Source: an uncultured virus (IMG/VR IMGVR_UViG_3300027963_000002) (Duplodnaviria > Heunggongvirae > Uroviricota > Caudoviricetes). Taken from it: DNA of 20,000 bases. A program made the position numbers and the translations under genes. The stretch is from IMG/VR virus record IMGVR_UViG_3300027963_000002; one strand, given 5' to 3'. Shown here piece after piece: positions 2,508-16,676 of this stretch (its first letter is position 1; each line of letters opens with the position of its first letter). Under the pieces are notes generated by a model, which saw only the letters and a program-made list of their open reading frames with translations, was not told where the DNA came from and ran no database searches.

Positions 2508-3422
2508 ATGGCTATTTCACGCGCACAGCTCCTCAAAGAGCTACTCCCCGGTCTCAACGCTTTGTTTGGTTTAGAATACAAACGCTATGGCGAAGAGCAC
2601 AAAGAGATCTACGAAACTGAGAAATCAGAACGTAGTTTTGAAGAAGAAACAAAGCTGTCAGGCTTTAGCGCTGCACCAGTTAAAAACGAAGGCTCTGCCA
2701 TCGCTTATGACAATGCACAAGAAGCTTTCACAGCTCGCTACAACCACGAAACCATTGCTTTGGGTTTTTCGATTACTGAAGAAGCAGTCGAAGATAACTT
2801 ATACGATGCATTATCTGGTCGTTACACCAAAGCCTTAGCTCGTGCTATGGCATACACCAAGCAAGTTAAAGCTGCCGCAATTTTAAACAACGGTTTTACC
2901 AACTCTAGCCAATATTACGGCGGCGATGGCGTACCTTTGTTTTCAACTGCACATCCTTTAGTTTCTGGTGGTACTAACAGCAACACCCCATCAACTGCCG
3001 CTGACTTGAATGAGACTTCGTTAGAAGCCGCTGTTATTCAAATTGCTGCATGGACTGATGAGCGTGGACTGTTAATTGCCGCTATGCCACGTAAATTAGT
3101 TATTCCTCCAGCATTGCAATTCGTTGCAACCCGCTTGTTGGAAACTAACCTACGCGTTGGTACTAACGACAATGACATCAATGCCTTGAAAAACAATGGT
3201 TCAATCCCAGAAGGTTACGCAATTAACCACTATCTGACTGACACCAATGGTTGGTTCTTGACAACTGATGTTCCTAACGGCATGAAGCATTTTGAGCGTA
3301 TGCCTTTGGCTAACAGCATGGACGGCGATTTCGACACAGGTAACGTACGTTACAAGTCTCGTGAGCGTTATTCGTTTGGTTGGTCAGATCCGCTTGGCAT
3401 GTTTGGTTCGCCCGGAGCTTAA
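2508..3422 (+). CDS. Major capsid protein (HK97-fold, Mu gpT-like family)
   Basis: 304 aa, MAISRAQLLKELLPGLNALFG...SERSFEEE...PRKLVIPPAL...DFDTGNVRYKSRERYSFGWSDP. Strong AAGGAG RBS; followed by an intrinsic terminator. Confidence 0.9.
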   Translation: MAISRAQLLKELLPGLNALFGLEYKRYGEEHKEIYETEKSERSFEEETKLSGFSAAPVKNEGSAIAYDNAQEAFTARYNHETIALGFSITEEAVEDNLYDALSGRYTKALARAMAYTKQVKAAAILNNGFTNSSQYYGGDGVPLFSTAHPLVSGGTNSNTPSTAADLNETSLEAAVIQIAAWTDERGLLIAAMPRKLVIPPALQFVATRLLETNLRVGTNDNDINALKNNGSIPEGYAINHYLTDTNGWFLTTDVPNGMKHFERMPLANSMDGDFDTGNVRYKSRERYSFGWSDPLGMFGSPGA

Positions 3423-3440
3423 GTCTTATATAAGACTAAT

Positions 3441-3474
3441 GAAGACCCCGCTCAAAAGGCGGGGTTTTTCTTTT
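3441..3474 (+). terminator. Rho-independent terminator after the major capsid gene, possibly bidirectional
   Basis: Stem ACCCCGC / GCGGGGT with a 7-nt loop, followed by TTTTCTTTT. The convergent HNH gene stops inside the loop. Confidence 0.85.
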
Positions 3475-3808
3475 CTTCAGAATGATGGATTCTGTGGCAG
3501 TTTGCGCATAGTACTATGCACTTTTTAATTTCTTCTTTAGCTTTCTTGTACAAACCTTGTTGGGCTAAGTAATTTACTGATTTATGGTTTGTGCGGTCAA
3601 CATGGTGAAAATCTAATGCTGCTGGGTGGTTAAAACCGCATTTAGTACAAGCAAAGGTTGCTTTAAAAGCTTGCCATTCTATTCGTTTATTTTTTCTATG
3701 TTTAGCATTTGCAACTAAAACTTTTTCTTTATTTTCTGCATAGTGTTTAGCAGAACTTTTTTTAGATGATTCTTTTTTTCTTGGGTCGTTTGGATCTTTA
3801 TAAGGCAT
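3452..3808 (-). CDS. HNH endonuclease (free-standing)
   Basis: CTKCG...LDFHH...KCIVLCANCHRIHH zinc/HNH motifs with a basic N-terminus. Start placed at ATG 3808 (MPYKDP), overlapping the end of the upstream gene. Confidence 0.88.
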   Translation of the reverse strand: MPYKDPNDPRKKESSKKSSAKHYAENKEKVLVANAKHRKNKRIEWQAFKATFACTKCGFNHPAALDFHHVDRTNHKSVNYLAQQGLYKKAKEEIKKCIVLCANCHRIHHSEEKKNPAF

Positions 3809-4268
3809 TTTTTGTATATATGGTAGGATGCTTACTATCAAAAGAATAAACTTTAATCTGTCCTCCAGAATACAAATCGACCTGACAGGCCGCCCAACAA
3901 GCGTCTTCGGCTGTATGCCCTAATGACATTCCTGCTAATGCCGCTAAAGTACCACTGCCTAAAGCGTCTTGGGTATGAATTTGCCAAAAACGCAAGTCCT
4001 TACCAGAAACAAATATACCCGTTTCCGAAAGCAGCATAAAGTCTGCATCATCTGCATCTTTTATAATTGGTACTTTGCCCTTTTTACCTTCCATAAAGTA
4101 CTGAACAACTTCTTGAATACTCATCGTACTTCCAGCCCCAGCTAGCCACCCTTGCGGAACCCTATATACTTTATCGCTATTTAATTCTTTAGTATCAGAA
4201 TCGTCATCAGAAGTTTGACTATCGGAAACAAGAATCTTTCTTTTAGCATCGCCCACTATAGTAGTCAT
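3798..4268 (-). CDS. Ntn-hydrolase, HslV/proteasome beta-subunit-like peptidase
   Basis: Start at 4268 gives M-TTIV (N-terminal Thr nucleophile), SDSQ (Asp17-equivalent), DKV (Lys33-equivalent), LAGAG, ALGSG, then A..A...DLYSGG.I.V. These are the HslV/20S beta signatures in the expected order. Confidence 0.82.
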   Translation of the reverse strand: MTTIVGDAKRKILVSDSQTSDDDSDTKELNSDKVYRVPQGWLAGAGSTMSIQEVVQYFMEGKKGKVPIIKDADDADFMLLSETGIFVSGKDLRFWQIHTQDALGSGTLAALAGMSLGHTAEDACWAACQVDLYSGGQIKVYSFDSKHPTIYTKNAL

Positions 4269-4411
4269 TTGGTTGCCATCATCCACAAACCTACATTAGC
4301 GCCAGCGTAACAGATGTAACAGATCAGCATTGGTATGTTTCCCTTAAGACCTTGTTCTACGGCTATGTAAAAATAAATTATGCCAGTTACGATAATAAGC
4401 CAAGCACTCAC
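4265..4411 (-). CDS. Small two-helix membrane protein (48 aa; not in ORF track)
   Basis: Hand translation from GTG 4411: MSAWLIIVTGIIYFYIAVEQGLKGNIPMLICYICYAGANVGLWMMATK*. GGGGGT SD-like sequence upstream; ATGA overlap with the protease start. Confidence 0.8.
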   Translation of the reverse strand: MSAWLIIVTGIIYFYIAVEQGLKGNIPMLICYICYAGANVGLWMMATK

Positions 4412-4458
4412 GGCACCCCCACGTATTTATTGGTCTTTGCCTATTTTACCCAATATTC

Positions 4459-4487
4459 TTGCGCATCATTAAAAAAAGTAGTAATAT
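4459..4487 (+). promoter_or_regulatory. Sigma70-like promoter
   Basis: TTGCGC (4459-4464), 17 bp, TAATAT (4482-4487). The predicted start (~4494) coincides with the 5' edge of the structured RNA. Confidence 0.65.
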
Positions 4488-4495
4488 CGTATAAA

Positions 4496-4563
4496 CCGGG
4501 AAAACCGGCTTATCAAACTGTCCCGGCAGACAGCATATTGATTGATAAGCTGATCTTATATGC
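4496..4563 (+). ncRNA. Structured double-pseudoknot leader RNA, probably Mu-gpT-DE motif
   Basis: 11-bp stem 4506-4516/4542-4552; inner CTG/CAG stem whose loop TCCCGG (4521-4526) is complementary to CCGGGA (4496-4501); GCATAT (4533-4538) is complementary to ATATGC (4558-4563). The context (downstream of a gpT-like capsid gene and terminator, upstream of an unknown gene) matches my recollection of the Mu-gpT-DE motif. Confidence 0.7.
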
Positions 4564-4577
4564 AAGGACAATTTATC

Positions 4578-5087
4578 ATGACTTTAGCAACTACCTCGTC
4601 TTTATGGCGTTCAACAGGTGGCGATTCTACTCGTACAGCTTATGCTGGCTCAATGGAAATGGTCGCTCAGTTTTACGTCGCCAACTCATCTTCTACTTCT
4701 GCTAATGTAGCAGTTTCAGCTACTAATACGGCTGCAGTTATTCTGCCAGCTAACACGGTTGTTTTGCGTGTAACGATTACTACTGGTTCAACGGGTGCAA
4801 ATTCAGCAGCTAACATAGGGTTTACCCCAATTACTGGCGGCGGCCCCGGACAAGCGATTGCTTTAGGCACTAACGTTCCTGCTGCTTTTACAAGCGCTGC
4901 TAACGTAGTTGCTCGCACAACTATTAACGTAGGTGGTACAGGCGGCGGCGCTTCTTTAGGCAACGTAGCTAATGCAACTAATTTAATTATTGTTACTTCT
5001 GCTATTGGCGCTGCTGGTGCTGTTGGCGGCCCTGTAACAGGTTTAATTAGTTATTACGTAGCGGACAACGGTCAGCAAAACGTTTAA
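4578..5087 (+). CDS. Putative virion structural protein (A/G/T/N-rich)
   Basis: Start moved to ATG 4578 after AAGGA (4564-4568). Beta-rich composition with a VILPANTVVLRVTI motif. Confidence 0.7.
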   Translation: MTLATTSSLWRSTGGDSTRTAYAGSMEMVAQFYVANSSSTSANVAVSATNTAAVILPANTVVLRVTITTGSTGANSAANIGFTPITGGGPGQAIALGTNVPAAFTSAANVVARTTINVGGTGGGASLGNVANATNLIIVTSAIGAAGAVGGPVTGLISYYVADNGQQNV

Positions 5088-5095
5088 TTAATCTA

Positions 5096-5109
5096 GGGGG
5101 TTCGCCCCC
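5096..5109 (+). other. GGGGG-TTCG-CCCCC hairpin (mRNA stabiliser or weak terminator)
   Basis: Perfect 5-bp GC stem with a UUCG loop in an intergenic gap; no immediate U-tract. Confidence 0.6.
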
Positions 5110-5133
5110 ACTTAAATCTTTAGGAGATTAATT

Positions 5134-5424
5134 ATGGGTATGCAATATGACGTACAAATGGTTCATGCGGATGCAAACGTACAAGCTATTACGGGTCCTG
5201 TTCGGGTAAAAGGTTATCAAGTAGCCTCTGGTGGGGTTGCTGGCGAGATTCAGTTTTGGGATACCGCTTCTAATTCCGCTACTGGCACAGAACGCCTAAC
5301 ACTAAATGTCACTACCAATACCGCCGTTATTTCTACATTGATACCGGGCGAAGGTATTCGTTTTAACCTTGGTGTTTATATAAAACTACCAACTAACGCA
5401 GCAGTTACAACATTTTATGGCTAA
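5134..5424 (+). CDS. Small beta-rich putative structural protein
   Basis: AGGAG RBS; GPVRVKG...IPGEGIRF..GVY...TTFYG pattern. Confidence 0.7.
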   Translation: MGMQYDVQMVHADANVQAITGPVRVKGYQVASGGVAGEIQFWDTASNSATGTERLTLNVTTNTAVISTLIPGEGIRFNLGVYIKLPTNAAVTTFYG

Positions 5425-8797: not shown

Positions 8798-9486
8798 TGA
8801 ACTACAACGATCTTTTCTCGCAGGTTCAAGCGTATACGGAGAATCAATTTCCGGCTACGTATCTTGCCAATGGAAGTACAGTCAGCTATACAACGCAGAT
8901 TAATACCTTCATTCAGCAGGCAGAAGCTCGCATCTATAATACGGTGCAGATACCTTCTTTGCGGAAAAACGTTACGGGTAATTGTTCTTCTACCACGACT
9001 TACTTAGGATGCCCTAACGACTACTTATCTACCTATTCAATGGCGGTTATTGATGGAGATGGGGTTTATGAGTACCTTTTAAATAAGGATGTTAATTTCA
9101 TTCGTCAGGCTTACCCAGACCCAACAGCGACAGGACTGCCCCGTTACTACGCTCTTTTTGGCTCTAGACTGAATGATCCTAATGAACTAACTTTCATGCT
9201 TGGCCCAAAACCAGACGCTAATTACGGCGTTGAGCTTCACTATTTCTTTTATCCAGAATCAATTGTTACTGCTGGCACGTCTTGGCTTGGTGATAATTAC
9301 TCACCCGCATTGTTGTATGGGTCTATTTTAGAAGCTTATGTTTATATGAAAGGCGACCCAGATATGATGTTAGCCTATAAAGCCAAGTACGATGAAGCAA
9401 TGCAGCAATTAAACCGCTTAGGTACAGGACTTGAAAGAAACGATGCCTATAGAGCAGGCCAAGCTTCAATCAAGGTTAACCCATGA
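8797..9486 (+). CDS. Second putative head-tail adaptor-like protein
   Basis: Same architecture as 7212-7964: FIQQAEARI, CPNDYL, GLPRYYA, LGPKPD.NY.VELHY, ALLYGSILEAY.YMKG...YDEAM. Confidence 0.6.
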   Translation: MNYNDLFSQVQAYTENQFPATYLANGSTVSYTTQINTFIQQAEARIYNTVQIPSLRKNVTGNCSSTTTYLGCPNDYLSTYSMAVIDGDGVYEYLLNKDVNFIRQAYPDPTATGLPRYYALFGSRLNDPNELTFMLGPKPDANYGVELHYFFYPESIVTAGTSWLGDNYSPALLYGSILEAYVYMKGDPDMMLAYKAKYDEAMQQLNRLGTGLERNDAYRAGQASIKVNP

Positions 9487-9902
9487 AAACTTGTAACGTT
9501 TGCGAAACAGCACGCCCACTATCTGATTTTGGTGTACGTAAAACAGGCCGTATTGGTGATTTAATAATGCCATGTAAGCCATGTAAAGTTCAAGTAAACA
9601 GACAAAAAAGACGTGCAGACCCTAGGCGTTTCTATGAAATTGAACGTAAAAGCAAATTTAAAACCCAGTATGGGATTACGCCTGAAAAGTATGATGAAAT
9701 GCTGGCTGCGCAAAATGGTGGGTGCGCTATTTGTGGGGAAAAAACACCCGGATTGCGTACAAAGAACTTTGCCGTTGATCATTGCCACACAACTGGTAAA
9801 GTAAGAGGTTTACTCTGCACCAAATGCAACAGGGGATTAGGTTTGTTTAACGATAGATCCGATCTGTTAAAATTAGCAACAACTTATTTAATAGGAGCAT
9901 AG
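9483..9902 (+). CDS. Endonuclease VII-like (His-Me finger) homing endonuclease
   Basis: N-terminal CxxC...CxxC, then YGIT...YDEML..Q.G.CAICG...VDHCHTTGKVRGLLC..CN.GLG.F.D. Confidence 0.9.
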   Translation: MKTCNVCETARPLSDFGVRKTGRIGDLIMPCKPCKVQVNRQKRRADPRRFYEIERKSKFKTQYGITPEKYDEMLAAQNGGCAICGEKTPGLRTKNFAVDHCHTTGKVRGLLCTKCNRGLGLFNDRSDLLKLATTYLIGA

Positions 9903-10347: not shown

Positions 10348-10812
10348 ATGGCTCTTGGGTTATACGATAGGGTTAAAGAAACCAGTAATACTTCTGGTAC
10401 GGGGACTATTGTCCTTTTGGGAGCTGTTACAGGCTACCAATCTTTTGCCGTCTTGGGAAATGCAAACACAACTTATTACACGATTGCAGACCAAATCGGA
10501 ACAAACTGGGAAGTTGGAATCGGGACTTACTATACGGGTAACGTCTCTCTCGCCCGCACGACCATTATTTCTTCAAGCAATGCGAATGCAGTAGTTAATT
10601 TTACTAACGTTACACATGATGTATTTATTACAATGCCCGCAGAGACCTCCGCTTTGGGTGGGGCAGGACAGGCAATTCTAGTAAACCAGACTACGGCAAC
10701 GGCAAACTATACGATTGCTACAGGCACAAATGGCTTTTCTGTAGGCCCAATAACAACGGCAAACAACGTATCAGTAACGATTGCTAGCGGACAAAGTTGG
10801 ACGGTAATATGA
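10348..10812 (+). CDS. Putative tail fibre proximal/anchor protein
   Basis: DRVKETS.TSGTGTI.L.GA..GYQSF...TYYTI...WEVGIGTY N-terminal domain; GPIT...VTIASGQSWTVI C-terminal motif. Confidence 0.6.
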   Translation: MALGLYDRVKETSNTSGTGTIVLLGAVTGYQSFAVLGNANTTYYTIADQIGTNWEVGIGTYYTGNVSLARTTIISSSNANAVVNFTNVTHDVFITMPAETSALGGAGQAILVNQTTATANYTIATGTNGFSVGPITTANNVSVTIASGQSWTVI

Positions 10813-11981
10813 GCTATATTGCTTCTGGTAACACTGTTACTACTTCTATTAAAATCTCTGGCGATACAACTGGTAATCTTATCTTCACGACTAGCGGAGC
10901 AAATACAACTGCGCTTACTTTAGATACTGCACAAACTGCTACTTTTGCTGGTTCTGTTTCTCTCTCAAACATTACCTCATCTAGCAACGTAATTATTACT
11001 TCTACTGCATCAAACGGCACAATCAACATGAACGCTTCTACTGGTGGGCTTATTGTTCCTACTGGTACAACGGCTCAAAGACCAGCCAGTCCAGCAGCAG
11101 GCACATTTAGATATAACACAAGCAATAACGTAACTGAGGTTTATTCAGGCGTTGCATGGACTTCTATTACTTCACAAACATATTCTGCGTCTTATCTTAT
11201 TGTTGCTGGTGGTGGTGGTGCGGCAGGCGATATTTCTGGTGGTGCTGGTGCTGGCGGTGTTTTGTCTGGCACTTACACAATGGATATTGGAACAACTTAT
11301 TCCATAGTTATTGGTTCTGGCGGTTCTGCTGGCAATGGAAGCAGACCATCAACAGGTGCAACCAACGGAAGCAATACTACAGCTTTAAGTTTAACAGCCG
11401 TAGGTGGCGGTAAAACATACGGATATGCTTCATCAACTACTCAAGCTGGTGCTTCAGGTGGTAGCGGTGGTGGTGGTGGTGGCTCTGATTCTGGATATAC
11501 AACTCCAGGTGGCGCAGGCACTTCTGGTCAGGGTTACGCAGGCGGCAATGGCGGTTATGGCTCAAATTATGGTGGTGGCGGTGGAGGCGGCGCAGGGGCA
11601 GTAGGTAGCGCAGTAGGTAGCGCAGGAAGTTCTACTGGTGGCGTTGGTGTTTCATCTTCAATTACTGGTTCTGCTGTTTATTACGCAGGTGGAGGCGGTG
11701 GTGGTTATAACGGTTCAGGTAGCGGTTCTGCTGGCGGTTCAGGTGGCGGTGGTACAGGTGGAACTGCATCTGTATCAGCAGTAGCTGGAACTGCCAATAC
11801 TGGTGGCGGTGGAGGTGGTGCAACAGGCAGTCAATCAGGTGCGGCTGGTGGTAGCGGAGTAGTTATATTTAGTGTACCAACTACTAACTACACAGCAACT
11901 ACTACTGGTAGCCCAACAGTTACTACTTCTGGTAGCAACACAATTATGAAATTTACAGCATCAGGTTCTTACACGGCTTAA
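10809..11981 (+). CDS. Glycine-rich-domain fibre/adhesin protein 1
   Basis: Start ATG 10809 (ATGA overlap); VPTGTTAQRP...RYNT module plus one Gly-rich domain (SYLIVAGGG...GGSGVVI). Confidence 0.75.
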   Translation: MSYIASGNTVTTSIKISGDTTGNLIFTTSGANTTALTLDTAQTATFAGSVSLSNITSSSNVIITSTASNGTINMNASTGGLIVPTGTTAQRPASPAAGTFRYNTSNNVTEVYSGVAWTSITSQTYSASYLIVAGGGGAAGDISGGAGAGGVLSGTYTMDIGTTYSIVIGSGGSAGNGSRPSTGATNGSNTTALSLTAVGGGKTYGYASSTTQAGASGGSGGGGGGSDSGYTTPGGAGTSGQGYAGGNGGYGSNYGGGGGGGAGAVGSAVGSAGSSTGGVGVSSSITGSAVYYAGGGGGGYNGSGSGSAGGSGGGGTGGTASVSAVAGTANTGGGGGGATGSQSGAAGGSGVVIFSVPTTNYTATTTGSPTVTTSGSNTIMKFTASGSYTA

Positions 11982-12373: not shown

Positions 12374-13453
12374 ATGCCAGTAATTATTAGCGGCGGTTCA
12401 GGAAGTGCAAATCTAAGTGGAGACACTGGTCTTACTGCGTCTAATATTACTAGCTCAGCTAACATAACAATTACTTCCACTGCTTCAAATGGCACAATCA
12501 ATATGAATGCCACTACTGGTGGTTTAATTGTTCCAAAAGGGACAGATGCGCAACGCCCTGTAAATGCAGCGGCTGGTACGTTTCGTTTTAATACAAGCAA
12601 TAATGCAACTGAAGTTTATTCTGGGGTTGCTTGGGTAACATTAACTTCTCAAACATATTCTGCATCTTATCTTGTTGTGGCGGGTGGAGGCGGAGGTGGA
12701 GTTTATGGTGGTGGCGGTGGAGCAGGTGGATTGCTTACTAATTCCACAACATTAAATGGTGGCACAACTTATACAGTTACCATTGGTGCTGGTGGTACAG
12801 GTGGTACATCAAGACCTGTTATTGGTGGAAATGGTGGAAATTCTTCAGTTTTTAGTCAAACTGCTATTGGTGGTGGTGGTGGCGCAAGTGATAATGGTGG
12901 AACAACTAGCTCTAGCGTAACTGTTGGCGCTTCAGGTGGTTCAGGAGGTGGAGGCTCATATCCAAGTAGTTCTGCTGGTGGAGCAGGTACATCTGGTCAA
13001 GGCTACGCAGGTGGTTCTGGGGTAAATTCTGCTTCTAGCTATGGTGGTGGAGGCGGAGGTGGTTCTTCAGCTATTGGAAGCAATGGCTCTGGTAGTGCTG
13101 GAGGAAATGGTGGTGCTGGTACAGCTTCTTCTATAACTGGCTCTAGTGTTACTTATGCTGGCGGTGGCGGCGGCGGCGCTCAAAGTAGTGGTACTAGAGG
13201 CACAGGTGGCTCAGGTGGCGGAGGAACAGGTGGCAATAGTTCAAATGTACCGACTGCAGGTACTACAAACTTAGGAAGCGGTGGCGGTGGAGATGGTAAT
13301 GGTGTTACTGGAGCAAATGGAGGTTCTGGAATTGTAATTATTAGTGTTCCAACTACAAACTATTCTGGCACTACTACAGGTAGCCCGACAGTTACTACTA
13401 GCGGCTCAAACACAATTATGAGTTTTACTGCTTCTGGTAGTTACACAGCCTAA
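12374..13453 (+). CDS. Glycine-rich-domain fibre/adhesin protein 2 (paralog of protein 1)
   Basis: Shares TSTASNGTINMN..TGGLIVP.GT.AQRP, VYSGVAW...TSQTYSASYL and the C-terminal TTTGSPTVTTSGSNTIM.FTASGSYTA with 10809-11981. Confidence 0.75.
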   Translation: MPVIISGGSGSANLSGDTGLTASNITSSANITITSTASNGTINMNATTGGLIVPKGTDAQRPVNAAAGTFRFNTSNNATEVYSGVAWVTLTSQTYSASYLVVAGGGGGGVYGGGGGAGGLLTNSTTLNGGTTYTVTIGAGGTGGTSRPVIGGNGGNSSVFSQTAIGGGGGASDNGGTTSSSVTVGASGGSGGGGSYPSSSAGGAGTSGQGYAGGSGVNSASSYGGGGGGGSSAIGSNGSGSAGGNGGAGTASSITGSSVTYAGGGGGGAQSSGTRGTGGSGGGGTGGNSSNVPTAGTTNLGSGGGGDGNGVTGANGGSGIVIISVPTTNYSGTTTGSPTVTTSGSNTIMSFTASGSYTA

Positions 13454-13734
13454 TGCCAAGCACAATAAATGCCCAAGCTGGCAACGCCTCACAATGGACT
13501 GCGCTAATTAAAACAGCGAACGGTACGGCAAATCTATCTTTACAAACTAATGGTTCAACTGCTCTACTTATAGATCAGAATCAAAATGCTAACTGTACTT
13601 CAACGGGCGCTATAAAAATCCCAGCAGGTACAACTGCACAAAGACCTAGCCCAGCAGTAAACGGTATGGTTAGATATAACACAACAAACGCAAAGCTAGA
13701 AGGCTATGCAAACAATTCTTGGGCGGTATTTTGA
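13453..13734 (+). CDS. Short fibre-module protein (GTTAQRP module only)
   Basis: TAATG overlap; IPAGTTAQRP...GMVRYNTT...EGY...W with no Gly-rich domain. Confidence 0.7.
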   Translation: MPSTINAQAGNASQWTALIKTANGTANLSLQTNGSTALLIDQNQNANCTSTGAIKIPAGTTAQRPSPAVNGMVRYNTTNAKLEGYANNSWAVF

Positions 13735-16676
13735 CTACTAAACTTAACGCCTCTACAGCAGGTTTAGTTGAAACTGTTGATACTTCTGGAATTTTAGAAC
13801 TTCAGACAGCAAACACAACCGCAATAACTATAGATACTAGCCAGAATATTAACTGCGCTTCAACGGGCGCTATTGTTGTTCCACTGGGTACTACAGCACA
13901 AAGACCGACAGCAGCCAATGGGATGCTTAGATATAACACTTCTATATCTAATTTTGAGTCTTATATTAATAACGCATGGGGTGTATTTACTGTTACTTTT
14001 GCTCCTGTTAATTCGGTCGCCCCTGTAATTTCTGGCTCTAATGTCTTTGTAGGGTCTAACTTAACTTCTACTACGGGTACATGGACTAATACTCCAACGT
14101 CCTACGCATACCAATGGTTAGCTAATTCAACCGCCATAGTAGCCAACGCTACGGCTAACGTCTTTACACTAACTGCAACCCAGACGGGCGCTAATATAAC
14201 CTGTAATGTAACGGCAGTAAATGCCGCTGGAAACTCGACTCCTGCTACATCAAATACGCTTGGCCCAGTCGTTGCTGGTGTTACTGCTAGTTACCTAGTT
14301 GTAGCTGGTGGTGGTTCTGGAGGTGGTGGGTATAACAGCGGTTCAGGAACTTCTGGTGGTGGCGGTGGCGGCGCTGGCGGACTTTTAACTGGTACAACAA
14401 TTCTTCAATTAGCAAATACGTATTCAATCACTATTGGTGCTGGTGGTGCTGGTGTTACTGGTGGCGGTGGTGGTATTAATGGATCTAATTCATCAATTAC
14501 TGGTCTTACTACTGTTGTAGGTGGTGGTGGCGGTGGTGGTATTGCCCCTGGCGGTGTATTTACTCAGGCTAAAGCTGGCGGATCAGGTGGTGGTGCTGTT
14601 TCTGGTGCGGCATCTAGTGGCGGAGCAAACGTTGCTAGTCAAGGATATTACGGTGGAAATAATAGTGGTAGTTACGCTTCTGGTAATTATCCAGCTGCTG
14701 GTGGCGGTGGAGCTGGTCAGGTTGGTCAAGATGTTGTTAGCACTTCAGTTGCTGGATCTGGTGGAAATGGTGTAAGTTCATCAATTAGTGGCTCTGCTAT
14801 AACTTATGCTGGCGGTGGCGGTGGATCTACATATAATGGCGGAACTCCAGGATCTGGCGGCTCAGGCGGTGGCGGTGCTGGTGCTAATGGAAGTGCTAAC
14901 GGAACTAATGGCGCTACTAATTTAGGTGCTGGTGGTGGCGGAACAAGCTCTACTGGTGGAAACTATACAACTGGCGCTGGCGGTTCAGGCATTGTAATTA
15001 TCAGCTACACAGGCGCACAACAATTTGGTGGCGGTGTAATTACAACCGATGGCACAAACACTATCCACACATTCAATACAAGTGGTGTACTAAGTCCTAT
15101 TAGTTCTTTATCTGCAAGCTATTTAATAGTAGCTGGTGGCGGTGGTGGCGGTGCAAACTACGGAGGCGGTGGTGGTGCTGGTGGTTTACTTGCTTCTAAT
15201 GTAACCATTGATACAAATTCAACTTACACAATTACTGTAGGTTCTGGAGGCGCTGGTTCGCCAGCAGTTATAGCAGGTAATATTGGTGGTAGTGGTTCTA
15301 ATTCAGCATTTAGTGCATATGCTACAGCCGCAGTTGGCGGTGGTGGTGGAGCAGGACAAAATAGTGCTGCTGGTGCTAATGGTGGCTCAGGAGGCGGTTC
15401 AGCCGTATCTGCTTCTGTTTCTTCAGGAACTGCTTCACAAGGAAATGCTGGCGGTCAAGGTGCTACAAGCGCAAACTATGGCGGTGGTGGTGGTGGTGGC
15501 GCAGGAGCAGTAGGTTCAAATGGAACAACAAATGCTGGTGGTAATGGTGGCGCTGGTACTGCTTCTTCGATTACAGGCAGTAGTGTTACCTATGCTGGCG
15601 GTGGTGGCGGTGGAACTTATGGAACAACATCTGCATCTATACCTGCTGGTTCTGGCGGTAGCGGAGGTGGTGGTGCTGGTGGTGGTAATAACCAAGCTGG
15701 AACTTCTGCAACCGCTAATACAGGCGGTGGTGGTGGCGGTGGAAATCAATATTACACAGGCGGTGGATTTAATACTTATGCTGGCGGCAATGGCGGTAGT
15801 GGCATAGTAATCATTTCATACTCTGGTAGCCAACAATTCTCAGGTGGTACAGTAACTACAAGCGGTGGAAATACTATACATTCATTTACTAGTAGTGGAA
15901 GTTTGGTAGGTGGGTATATTTCTTATTTAGTTGTTGCTGGTGGTGGCGGTGGAAATAATGACTCTGGCGGTGGTGGAGGTGCTGGTGGACTTTTAGCTGG
16001 CTCAACAAATTTGTTAAAAGGCACTCAATATACTATTACTGTAGGTACTGGCGGTGCTGCTGGCGCAAATGGAGCAGATTCGGTATTAAGCGGAACAGGT
16101 ATAACTACTGTAACTGCTACTGGCGGTGGCCGTGGTGCTGGCACTATAGGTAGTTATGCGGCTGGAAATGGTGGCTCTGGCGGTGGCGGTTCTGGTGGTG
16201 GAAATCCTGGCAATTTTGGCACAGGAGTTTCTGGGCAAGGTTTTGATGGTGGTACTGGATTAGTTTCGGGTAACTACACAGGCGGTGGTGGTGGCGGTGC
16301 ATCGGCAGTTGGTGGTAATGGTGGAACTAATGGTGGTGGTGGTGGCGTTGGTACAGCAAGTTCTATTACAGGAAGCTCTGTCACATACGCTGGCGGTGGT
16401 GGAGGTGGTGGTGGTTTAGGAAGTCCTGGAAGTGGGGGCAGCGGAGGTGGAGGCGCTGGTGGTACAAGCTCAAATGGTACTGCTGGAACTGCCAATACTG
16501 GAGGCGGTGGCGGTGGAACAGGTGGCGCAACTGGTGGCGCTGGCGGTTCTGGAGTAGTTATTATTTCTATTGCAACAGCCCGCTATTCAGGAACAACTAC
16601 TGGTTCACCAACAGTAACAACTAGCGGTACAAATACAATCTTAACTTACACAGCTTCTGGTACTTACACGGCTTAA
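13731..16676 (+). CDS. Large fibre/adhesin: GTTAQRP module, Ig-like domain and three Gly-rich domains
   Basis: Probable TTG start at 13731 overlapping the previous TGA. Ig-like APVNSVAPVISG...YAYQW...ITCNVTAVN at ~14001-14252; three SYL(V/I)VAGGG...GGSG(I/V)VII domains starting at ~14288, ~15116 and ~15921. Confidence 0.78.
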   Translation: MTTKLNASTAGLVETVDTSGILELQTANTTAITIDTSQNINCASTGAIVVPLGTTAQRPTAANGMLRYNTSISNFESYINNAWGVFTVTFAPVNSVAPVISGSNVFVGSNLTSTTGTWTNTPTSYAYQWLANSTAIVANATANVFTLTATQTGANITCNVTAVNAAGNSTPATSNTLGPVVAGVTASYLVVAGGGSGGGGYNSGSGTSGGGGGGAGGLLTGTTILQLANTYSITIGAGGAGVTGGGGGINGSNSSITGLTTVVGGGGGGGIAPGGVFTQAKAGGSGGGAVSGAASSGGANVASQGYYGGNNSGSYASGNYPAAGGGGAGQVGQDVVSTSVAGSGGNGVSSSISGSAITYAGGGGGSTYNGGTPGSGGSGGGGAGANGSANGTNGATNLGAGGGGTSSTGGNYTTGAGGSGIVIISYTGAQQFGGGVITTDGTNTIHTFNTSGVLSPISSLSASYLIVAGGGGGGANYGGGGGAGGLLASNVTIDTNSTYTITVGSGGAGSPAVIAGNIGGSGSNSAFSAYATAAVGGGGGAGQNSAAGANGGSGGGSAVSASVSSGTASQGNAGGQGATSANYGGGGGGGAGAVGSNGTTNAGGNGGAGTASSITGSSVTYAGGGGGGTYGTTSASIPAGSGGSGGGGAGGGNNQAGTSATANTGGGGGGGNQYYTGGGFNTYAGGNGGSGIVIISYSGSQQFSGGTVTTSGGNTIHSFTSSGSLVGGYISYLVVAGGGGGNNDSGGGGGAGGLLAGSTNLLKGTQYTITVGTGGAAGANGADSVLSGTGITTVTATGGGRGAGTIGSYAAGNGGSGGGGSGGGNPGNFGTGVSGQGFDGGTGLVSGNYTGGGGGGASAVGGNGGTNGGGGGVGTASSITGSSVTYAGGGGGGGGLGSPGSGGSGGGGAGGTSSNGTAGTANTGGGGGGTGGATGGAGGSGVVIISIATARYSGTTTGSPTVTTSGTNTILTYTASGTYTA

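Follow-up and report, generated by a model that had tools for sequence, protein, structure and literature searches.

A conserved double-pseudoknot leader RNA behind the capsid gene of aquatic phages, with a possible role in translation initiation

In an uncultured virus of the Caudoviricetes (IMG/VR record IMGVR_UViG_3300027963_000002) a short segment lies between a promoter-like site and the Shine-Dalgarno (SD) sequence of the gene for a 169-aa protein, and the question raised by this locus is whether the segment folds as an RNA, to which known RNA it is related, and what it does for the gene behind it. The stretch of DNA that was analysed, 20,000 nucleotides (nt) long, is called the window below. 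The original prediction, made from the letters alone, had proposed a compact double-pseudoknot RNA, had linked it to the Mu-gpT-DE motif (Rfam RF03012), an orphan motif for which we know of no function, and had favoured a cis role as a translational switch. The conserved fold established here by computation is a three-way junction with single-A linkers, which carries a pseudoknot formed by the 5' tail and a contact between two loops.

Covariation and the conserved fold

All four pairings proposed for this segment (68 nt) are present by sequence, namely CCGGGA/TCCCGG, CGGCTTATCAA/TTGATAAGCTG with one G-U, CTG/CAG and GCATAT/ATATGC, and all of them covary; two are shorter than first drawn, helix A having 5 bp and helix B 9 bp. 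Pair E and stem F are elements added beyond these four. The fold consists of the following parts:

4496-4500, + strand: 5' strand of helix A (CCGGG), which pairs with 4522-4526 to form pseudoknot 1
4508-4516, + strand: 5' strand of helix B, which pairs with 4542-4550 and closes the three-way junction
4542-4550, + strand: 3' strand of helix B, partner of 4508-4516
A4517, A4530 and A4541, + strand: junction linkers of a single nucleotide each, invariant in the alignments A2 and A5 described below
4518-4529, + strand: hairpin C, with stem 4518-4520/4527-4529 and a 6-nt loop that holds 4522-4526 (3' strand of helix A)
4531-4540, + strand: pair E (C4531-G4540), closing an 8-nt loop that contributes its middle bases 4533-4538 to helix D as 5' strand
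4555-4566, + strand: hairpin F, with stem C4555-G4566, U4556-A4565, U4557-A4564 and a 6-nt loop 4558-4563 that is the 3' strand of helix D
4564-4568, + strand: SD sequence AAGGA, 9 nt 5' of the ATG at 4578, invariant in the protein-seeded set
4505-4508, + strand: CCGG, which can pair with 4496-4499 instead, in a 5' hairpin that is mutually exclusive with pseudoknot 1

Homologues were collected by three seedings: with the 169-aa protein, with an RNA pattern independent of the protein, and with a covariance model (R1) built from the nested helices. Protein seeding in viral contigs gave 131 relatives, from which 80 were retained at 53-100% identity, and these carry the same RNA upstream with visible compensating changes. 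The pattern search in viral contigs returned at least 120 contigs; since the pattern fixes several positions, the invariance of these positions in the loci found by it (L082-L161) is by design, and the protein- and capsid-seeded sets are free of this bias. Alignment A2 comprises 39 distinct RNAs, and A5 is a gapless alignment of 44 equal-length members in which both pseudoknots are counted together. In the MAFFT alignments A1-A3 the register of the 5' strand of helix A varied, and an anchor blind to the pairing partner and the equal-length subset were used instead; the start points in A5 were picked so as to be complementary to the loop, a choice that biases that alignment towards helix A. The shuffle controls leave the relatedness among the sequences in place.

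In A2, which covers helices B, C, D and pair E, 95.7% of the 819 cells were paired, compared with 22-39% when the partners were slid; both sides had changed in 15 of 21 pairs, and none of 500 shuffles matched either the paired fraction or the covariation score. A5 gave 98.9% of 1056 cells paired and changes on both sides in 17 of 24 pairs, again with 0 of 500 shuffles as good. The covariation check on homologues that had been suggested for the prediction has thus been carried out and the pairings covary: every helix is backed by covariation and the fold is real.

Taken singly, helix A showed all five pairs in all 39 sequences with six sequence types (partner-blind anchor on the 5' strand; two rows by eye), it was 100% paired in A5 with both sides changed in three of its five pairs, and 13 loop types occur across 155 distinct RNAs. 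Its sixth pair, A4501-U4521, was not kept among the 39 homologues, and the control with foreign loops is a weak one here, as a partner exists for 254 of 567 foreign loops too, the loop types differing by one base. In helix B 97.2% of the A5 cells were paired and seven of nine pairs had changed on both sides. Its outer pairs fail in A2 (4506/4552 unpaired in 16 and 4507/4551 in 14 of the 39 RNAs), so nine supported pairs remain, and since 44 G-U cells stand against a single A-C cell in this helix, the folded molecule is the + strand RNA. The stem of hairpin C occurs in the 155 distinct RNAs as CUG/CAG (109), CAG/CUG (36), CCG/CGG (8) and CGG/CCG (2). Pair E, 97.7% paired in A5, appears in four Watson-Crick types (C-G 134, U-A 17, G-C 1 and A-U 1, besides U-U in 2). 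Helix D was paired to 100% in both A2 and A5 with all six pairs changed on both sides, and its six positions are fully complementary in 153 of the 155 distinct RNAs with 21 loop types.

Among the 153 distinct RNAs with helix D, 134 have the three flanking pairs of stem F, as CUU/AAG (100), CUC/GAG (24), GUG/CAC (6) or CUU/GAG (4), and 16 have no such stem; the non-pairing combination CUC/AAG was never seen in this set. As the 3' strand of helix D is the 6-nt loop of stem F, pseudoknot 2 is best described as a contact of two hairpin loops. The claim that the last pairing directly adjoins the AAGGA at 4564-4568 was correct for helix D, and altogether a compact double-pseudoknot RNA between the promoter-like site and the SD sequence is borne out by sequence and covariation. 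The nested minimum free energy fold of 4490-4585 reaches -24.8 kcal/mol compared with -14.9 +/- 2.75 for 200 shuffles, none of which was as stable (z -3.6); it contains pairings that are lost in relatives and consequently is not the conserved fold.

In one relative (L015:2908-2991) hairpin C is enlarged (stem CUGUUU/AAACAG, 9-nt loop), and by eye its 5' tail AGGGU pairs with ACCCU of the enlarged loop, pseudoknot 1 being rebuilt there in a different way.

Kinship with Mu-gpT-DE and the wider family

The Rfam covariance-model check gave no Mu-gpT-DE match in the window. RF03012 (53 positions, gathering cut-off 49 bits) had no match in the window at its gathering score and none on 3300-5200 or 4470-4600 with the threshold relaxed to E<=10, none of the loci of 20 relatives contained it at gathering score, and in five relatives of 61-65 kb the best hit, 15.4 bits, lay at other places and below the cut-off; as a positive control, 18 of 20 true Mu-gpT-DE loci scored 52-72 bits. 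Conversely, R1 found no Mu-gpT-DE members, and RF03012 found none of the window's family. No other family of Rfam 15 reached gathering score anywhere in the window, and a relaxed scan of 4470-4600 returned only rows at chance level (E at least 0.79, at most 14 bits); no known riboswitch or ribozyme class is matched, and the fold matches no Rfam 15 family. Weak Trp_leader and rnk rows at 3393-3477 were rejected, being the terminator of the capsid gene.

The setting, and by eye the plan of the junction, nevertheless suggest a tie between the two RNAs; the proposed link with Mu-gpT-DE is a good lead by gene junction and apparent junction signature and fails in the covariance model, for the window as for its close relatives. 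The window has the setting of RF03012, downstream of a Mu gpT-like major head gene (2508-3422, Pfam Mu-like_gpT), and both RNAs follow a gpT-like capsid gene, directly 5' of the next gene and behind a terminator and a -10-like site. In sister phages RF03012 matches at the same gene junction (52 bits in L266; 72.3 bits in Roseobacter phage CRP-902, L214:2496-2548). By eye both appear to share one plan: closing helix, A, hairpin of the CAG/CUG type, A-C-R, a loop of 6-7 nt, A-(N)-G-A, closing helix; these words were compared with the RF03012 consensus, a member reading for instance ...UCUG-A-CAG-UCCCGG-CUG-A-C-G-ACAUGC-A-G-A-CAGA. The single A's of the junction are found also in marine and DSL-type members and in Mu-gpT-DE, and in both RNAs the loop after the hairpin would pair with the region of translation start.

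There are also differences. The closing helix has 9 bp in the window RNA and leaves the SD sequence out, helix B ending at 4550, 14 nt 5' of it, where only stem F touches the SD bases; in Mu-gpT-DE it has 4 bp (CCUG/CAGG), its 3' strand overlaps the SD sequence and the model runs to AUG, the consensus ending in ...CAGGAGAUuaAC.AUG with CAGG paired. In the window RNA the 5' tail is paired to the 6-nt loop of hairpin C, whereas no such pairing was seen in Mu-gpT-DE. Finally, the second loop contacts the 3' hairpin just 5' of the SD sequence in the window, but in Mu-gpT-DE apparently the G of AUG and codon 2. For this last contact a base of the internal loop of Mu-gpT-DE covaries with codon 2 (G-C in 56, C-G in 13 and unpaired in 0 of 69 distinct members, L378-L456, among the loci listed; for example ..AGCC with AUGGCU and ..ACCC with AUGGGU), and the covarying pair is flanked by two near-invariant C-G pairs, the G of AUG being part of one of them. 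A pseudoknot of Mu-gpT-DE that includes the G of the start codon is therefore suggested, though as a suggestion only. Mu-gpT-DE is named in the CaCoFold paper, in two versions of it, and its row in the supplement of PMC7657543 bears a 'pk_1' mark, which may refer to this start-codon pairing. We conclude that RF03012 in its present model does not include the window RNA, which would rather be a larger relative of it, or at least a close analogue; we rate it as an orphan motif's relative with an expanded structure, whose function can be tested.

The family is very common among phage contigs from lake and ocean, the RNA having been found in hundreds of uncultured aquatic ones; the RNA pattern had 0 matches in 185,579 prokaryote species genomes, which gives no prophage or host clue. 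R1 detects it directly 5' of gp41 in the cultured Pelagibacter phage HTVC023P (42.6 bits) and in the metagenome-assembled phage DSL-LC04 (18.4 bits), and in both of these the two loop contacts are rebuilt from different sequences. Among the matches listed, R1 recognised 28 of 80 loci seeded with the HTVC023P capsid and 63 of 80 seeded with the DSL-LC04 capsid, many capsid-seeded loci ending short downstream. It found no copy in Pag-Yong1, HTVC027P, CRP-902, QDWS535 or Caulobacter phage RW. HTVC027P (L213:2885-3060) carries, by eye, an apparently divergent form that R1 misses; in this form, which occurs also in L227, L228, L230, L232 and L233, the SD sequence CUAGGAG itself supplies CUAGG as the partner of the second loop, CCUAG.

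A search of the literature on phage capsid RNA motifs and Mu-gpT-DE gave no description of the window's RNA. A catalogue of 2023 holds 8,495 candidate structured RNAs from IMG/VR (PMC10690425, parts of which were available); four short strings and six sample numbers were not found in the text of its supplement, the alignments excluded.

Translation initiation and competing explanations

The role of the RNA has to be sought from where its transcript begins and from what stays joined to it. Upstream of the fold lies:

4460-4488, + strand: promoter-like site TTGCGC-17 nt-TAATAT

This site had been predicted and is present by eye, the consensus scan not having listed it. A TANNNT hexamer ends 8-10 nt 5' of helix A in 74 of 80 distinct homologues (TATAAA in 5, none in 1, L128), and in most relatives a GGGG...TTTTT terminator, equivalent to that of the window, stands directly 5' of the promoter. 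As a terminator and then a promoter-like hexamer directly precede the RNA, the transcript would begin 0-2 nt 5' of helix A, near A4495. Lake metatranscriptome contigs of relatives (<95% identity) span the RNA and the open reading frame (ORF), although such contigs cannot define starts or strand; two of them, from two studies, end at 4506.

A transcript of this kind could owe the knot simply to its own stability. The 5' bases would be buried, decay by RNase E or RNase J that depends on the 5' end would be blocked, and the closeness to the SD sequence would be secondary. Helix A indeed starts 0-2 nt from the probable start (the -10 hexamer ending 8-10 nt upstream), the downstream gene probably encodes a high-copy virion protein, the RNA is retained while the coding sequence is replaced, and the strand order resembles that of the exonuclease-resistant RNAs (xrRNAs) of flaviviruses. 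The latter are three-way junctions of about 70 nt with the 5' end paired into the junction domain and a hairpin loop that pairs 3' of the closing helix; the likeness, in size, junction, tied-back 5' end and loop pairing 3' of the closing helix, is one of strand order only. Unlike in xrRNAs, the 5' tail of the window RNA pairs with a hairpin loop and not with junction bases, the RNA lies at the start of the transcript next to an SD sequence, and there is no likeness of sequence (no Rfam match). Moreover a simple 5' hairpin would suffice for protection, and part of the family can form one in place of pseudoknot 1. A stabilising cap also leaves unexplained why the 3' strand of the second pseudoknot tracks the SD sequence or the start codon across subfamilies and why stem F uses SD bases; we regard it as unlikely, yet as a competitor to be taken seriously.

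The RNA was predicted to have stayed joined to its promoter and its downstream gene when DNA was inserted behind the capsid gene, and this proved to be so in 22 of 74 loci. Among the matches listed, 74 of 79 pattern-found loci have a capsid match upstream; four of the other five have <260 nt of upstream DNA, and one (L134) has 1500 nt and no capsid match. The gap between capsid gene and RNA measures 71-197 nt in 52 of the 74 loci and 315-1301 nt in 22, the extra DNA always lying 5' of the unit of promoter, RNA and ORF. In most RNA-bearing loci the capsid protein is 80-90% identical. The downstream ORFs of the pattern-found loci fall into five groups unrelated by BLAST (36, 19, 10, 9 and 3), while the RNA and the capsid protein are conserved, consequently the role of the RNA is independent of the sequence of the product. 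Each phage has one copy (100 matches of R1 in 100 sources; one in the window).

The junction between the two genes might also be a place where a late transcript is cut, by a self-cleaving ribozyme or at an RNase processing signal. Small pseudoknotted phage RNAs are often ribozymes, and the most distant pattern-found member, L128:1501-1574 (49 bits with R1, capsid identity 40%), lacks a promoter-like hexamer and has a GC hairpin without a T run 10 nt upstream, so that it could be internal to a polycistronic RNA. Cleavage is however superfluous in most members, which have their own terminator-promoter pair directly upstream; the linkers are single A's with no conserved stretch resembling a catalytic core, and no ribozyme family of Rfam matches. 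Of all the explanations considered this one has the slightest probability.

What varies in step with the ribosome-binding site is the partner of the second junction loop. It lies just 5' of the SD sequence in the window's subfamily, where SD bases 1-3 (AAG, 4564-4566) are the 3' strand of stem F, on the SD sequence in HTVC027P-like members, a few bases 5' of it in HTVC023P and DSL-LC04, and at the start codon in Mu-gpT-DE. In all inspected protein-seeded rows AAGGA starts directly after helix D. Over the 153 distinct RNAs of the three seedings, the first GGA or GAG starts at the earliest 2 nt inside the 3' strand of helix D and at the latest 7 nt past it; the SD sequence overlaps this strand (CUAGG of CUAGGAG) in six RNAs and likewise, by eye, in HTVC027P.

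Since a loop partner at the translation start, a fixed distance to the promoter, a single copy and independence of the product all point to a leader working in cis, the evidence tips modestly toward a leader that acts in cis and sets how translation starts on the cement gene, as the downstream gene is probably to be called (see below); an effect on translation, as well as its sign, we infer. In this mechanism the mRNA of the gene that comes after the major capsid gene would begin with a structured leader, at about 4495-4568. Hairpin C would pair through its loop with the first bases of the transcript (helix A) and the loop of pair E with that of hairpin F (helix D), and the fold would thereby tie the two ends of the leader together. 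The ribosome-binding site would be held against, and partly inside, a rigid body, and this might set the ease with which the 30S subunit starts on the cement gene. The leader could be a fixed tuner, or it could be opened and closed by a factor such as the capsid protein, another protein, a metabolite or temperature. The window RNA and Mu-gpT-DE would then form one wider group.

Pseudoknotted operators at ribosome-binding sites are familiar from the T4 gene 32 leader, Escherichia coli rpsO with S15 and the alpha operon with S4, where a protein fixes the fold. Like those leaders, which set translation initiation, the window RNA would be a pseudoknotted 5' leader abutting or including the SD sequence. 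It differs from them in topology, being a three-way junction with two loop contacts, and in its gene, whose hypervariable product makes self-regulation appear unlikely; the conserved capsid protein is a possible partner. The gene 32 leader is mentioned also in PMC10690425, within the parts available.

Regarding the switch itself, the cis translational role is the part of the prediction that is best supported, whereas no conserved pair of states opening and closing the SD sequence was found among the relatives. Two of the alternative pairings initially proposed are by eye not conserved: TGTCC/GGACA over the SD sequence and CTGTC/GACAG are both lost, 4519-4523 being for example CGCCC in L036 and TGATC in L010. 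Part of the family retains the 5' hairpin CCGG-GAAAA-CCGG, which is reduced in CTGGG-type members: it was 99.4% paired in A5 with two compensated pairs, and has at least 4 bp in 66 of 81 sequences, but of the 17 members of the CTGGG type 13 have only 2-3 bp of it. It may arise as an intermediate of folding or belong to a switch. A riboswitch could be built on this hairpin, the junction binding a small molecule or ion and thereby shifting pseudoknot 1 against the hairpin, or stabilising the loop-loop contact, and so gating the SD sequence. For such a switch speak the complex compact fold directly 5' of the SD sequence, the exclusive and partly compensated alternative hairpin and the invariance of the junction A's and of the loop-flanking bases. 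Nevertheless few conserved unpaired bases are left for a ligand pocket, other members lack the hairpin, a conserved structure in which the SD sequence is fully hidden in one state was not found, known riboswitch families in Rfam do not match, and the regulated gene, encoding a virion protein, offers no hint of a ligand. We consider a riboswitch distinctly improbable.

A role apart from the translation of its own gene, such as put-like antitermination of a 15-kb late operon, a packaging or assembly RNA to which capsid proteins bind, or a trans-acting small RNA, is suggested by the position of the RNA, which opens a long run of structural genes on the same strand and stands next to the very conserved capsid gene, and by a three-way junction with pairing loops that recalls the phi29 packaging RNA. 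Yet no convincing downstream terminator for antitermination was found on the + strand of the window, no terminator separates the RNA from the ORF, the RNA running into the SD sequence, and each loop has its partner on the same molecule, a short and fixed distance away. A role of this type is very improbable. A packaging RNA of the phi29 type as such was rejected, the RNA being continuous with SD sequence and ORF without a terminator between them and its loop partners being intramolecular.

Several observations weigh against the cis-acting leader proposed above, or against parts of it. Stem F is only 3 bp long and invariant within the window's own clade, its support coming from sister clades; the 16 RNAs without it are mostly marine and HTVC023P-like, and in the GUG/CAC type the SD sequence lies 3' of the stem. 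Masking of the SD sequence may be slight because G4567 and A4568 are unpaired, and in the nested-fold ensemble the SD sequence is about half paired through non-conserved pairings, which says little either way. With respect to the transcript start, one RNA contig extends upstream through the promoter region, and the RNA of L128 may be internal to a longer transcript. As to Mu-gpT-DE, the kinship was read by eye from the junction signature, with neither covariance model detecting the other family, and its start-codon pseudoknot has one covarying position that possibly reflects few evolutionary events.

A more far-reaching possibility is that the RNA represents a new class of gated translational switches, or a phage counterpart of the nuclease-resistant knot RNAs, common to Mu-gpT-DE and spread across the abundant HTVC023P-type aquatic phages; this we hold to be unlikely, though with an appreciable chance. 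If it were true, the junction would sense a factor (free capsid protein, a host protein or a metabolite), loop contacts would be made or broken and the ribosome-binding site released, by which the synthesis of the cement protein would be coupled to capsid assembly or to the state of the host.

Mu-gpT-DE and a larger, unlisted relative are placed by this work at one spot, the 5' leader of the next gene behind the major capsid gene, and as one junction loop reaches the ribosome-binding region in every subfamily, a motif of no assigned function may be turned into a testable claim of translational control. The RNA occurs in the cultured SAR11 phage HTVC023P and Mu-gpT-DE in Roseobacter phage CRP-902, so experiments are possible, and the fold is small enough for structure determination.

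Downstream protein and genomic setting

The genes and signals around the RNA are the following:

4578-5087, + strand: downstream gene, 169 aa, probable capsid cement or decoration protein without a Pfam or PHROG family
2508-3422, + strand: gpT-like major capsid protein gene (Pfam Phage_capsid_4 2.4e-14, Mu-like_gpT 2.5e-9; PHROG major head protein)
3441-3469, + strand: intrinsic terminator 3' of the capsid gene, 12-bp stem and T run
3452-4286, - strand: block inserted between the capsid gene and the promoter-RNA unit, with an HNH endonuclease (3452-3841) and an HslV-family peptidase (3798-4286), both by PHROG matches

The 169-aa protein belongs to no Pfam or PHROG family and had no tblastn match in 50,697 phage records. 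Its AlphaFold model is a beta-sandwich of moderate confidence (predicted local distance difference test, pLDDT, 63.9) with weak fold matches in the PDB to phage GP4 (a 155-aa chain of its capsid, E 1.8e-3) and to the cement protein of KHP40 (E 2.5e-2), its BFVD neighbours are virion proteins, and the gene at the equivalent position of phage DSL-LC04 is annotated 'cement protein'. It is probably a capsid cement or decoration protein; since no PDB fold match was obtained at E<=0.001, 'cement protein' can be only a probable label. An in-frame ATG at 4560-4562 lies within the 3' strand of helix D, and the automated ORF call starts at 4560; relatives start at the ATG equivalent to 4578 and do not keep the upstream one.

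By gene calls, PHROG and Pfam the window is a phage structural module. Its 5' part holds a GroES-like gene followed by three genes without assigned function, of which two match PHROGs without assigned function and one has no PHROG. The terminator at 3441-3469 is the sole strong terminator-like site on the + strand of the window. The insert 3452-4286 is missing from most relatives, whose gap between capsid gene and RNA is 71-197 nt; the spot resembles an insertion hot spot, as the 22 of 74 related loci with 315-1301 nt have their extra DNA there. About 15 kb of same-strand virion genes follow the 169-aa ORF, with an endonuclease VII gene (9483-9902) amid the structural block. Three neighbouring genes further downstream (10797-11981, 12374-13453 and 13719-16676) match PHROG 2295, a family without assigned function, and 13453-13734 has N-terminal matches in common with them; these neighbours look like paralogous fibre-like virion proteins.

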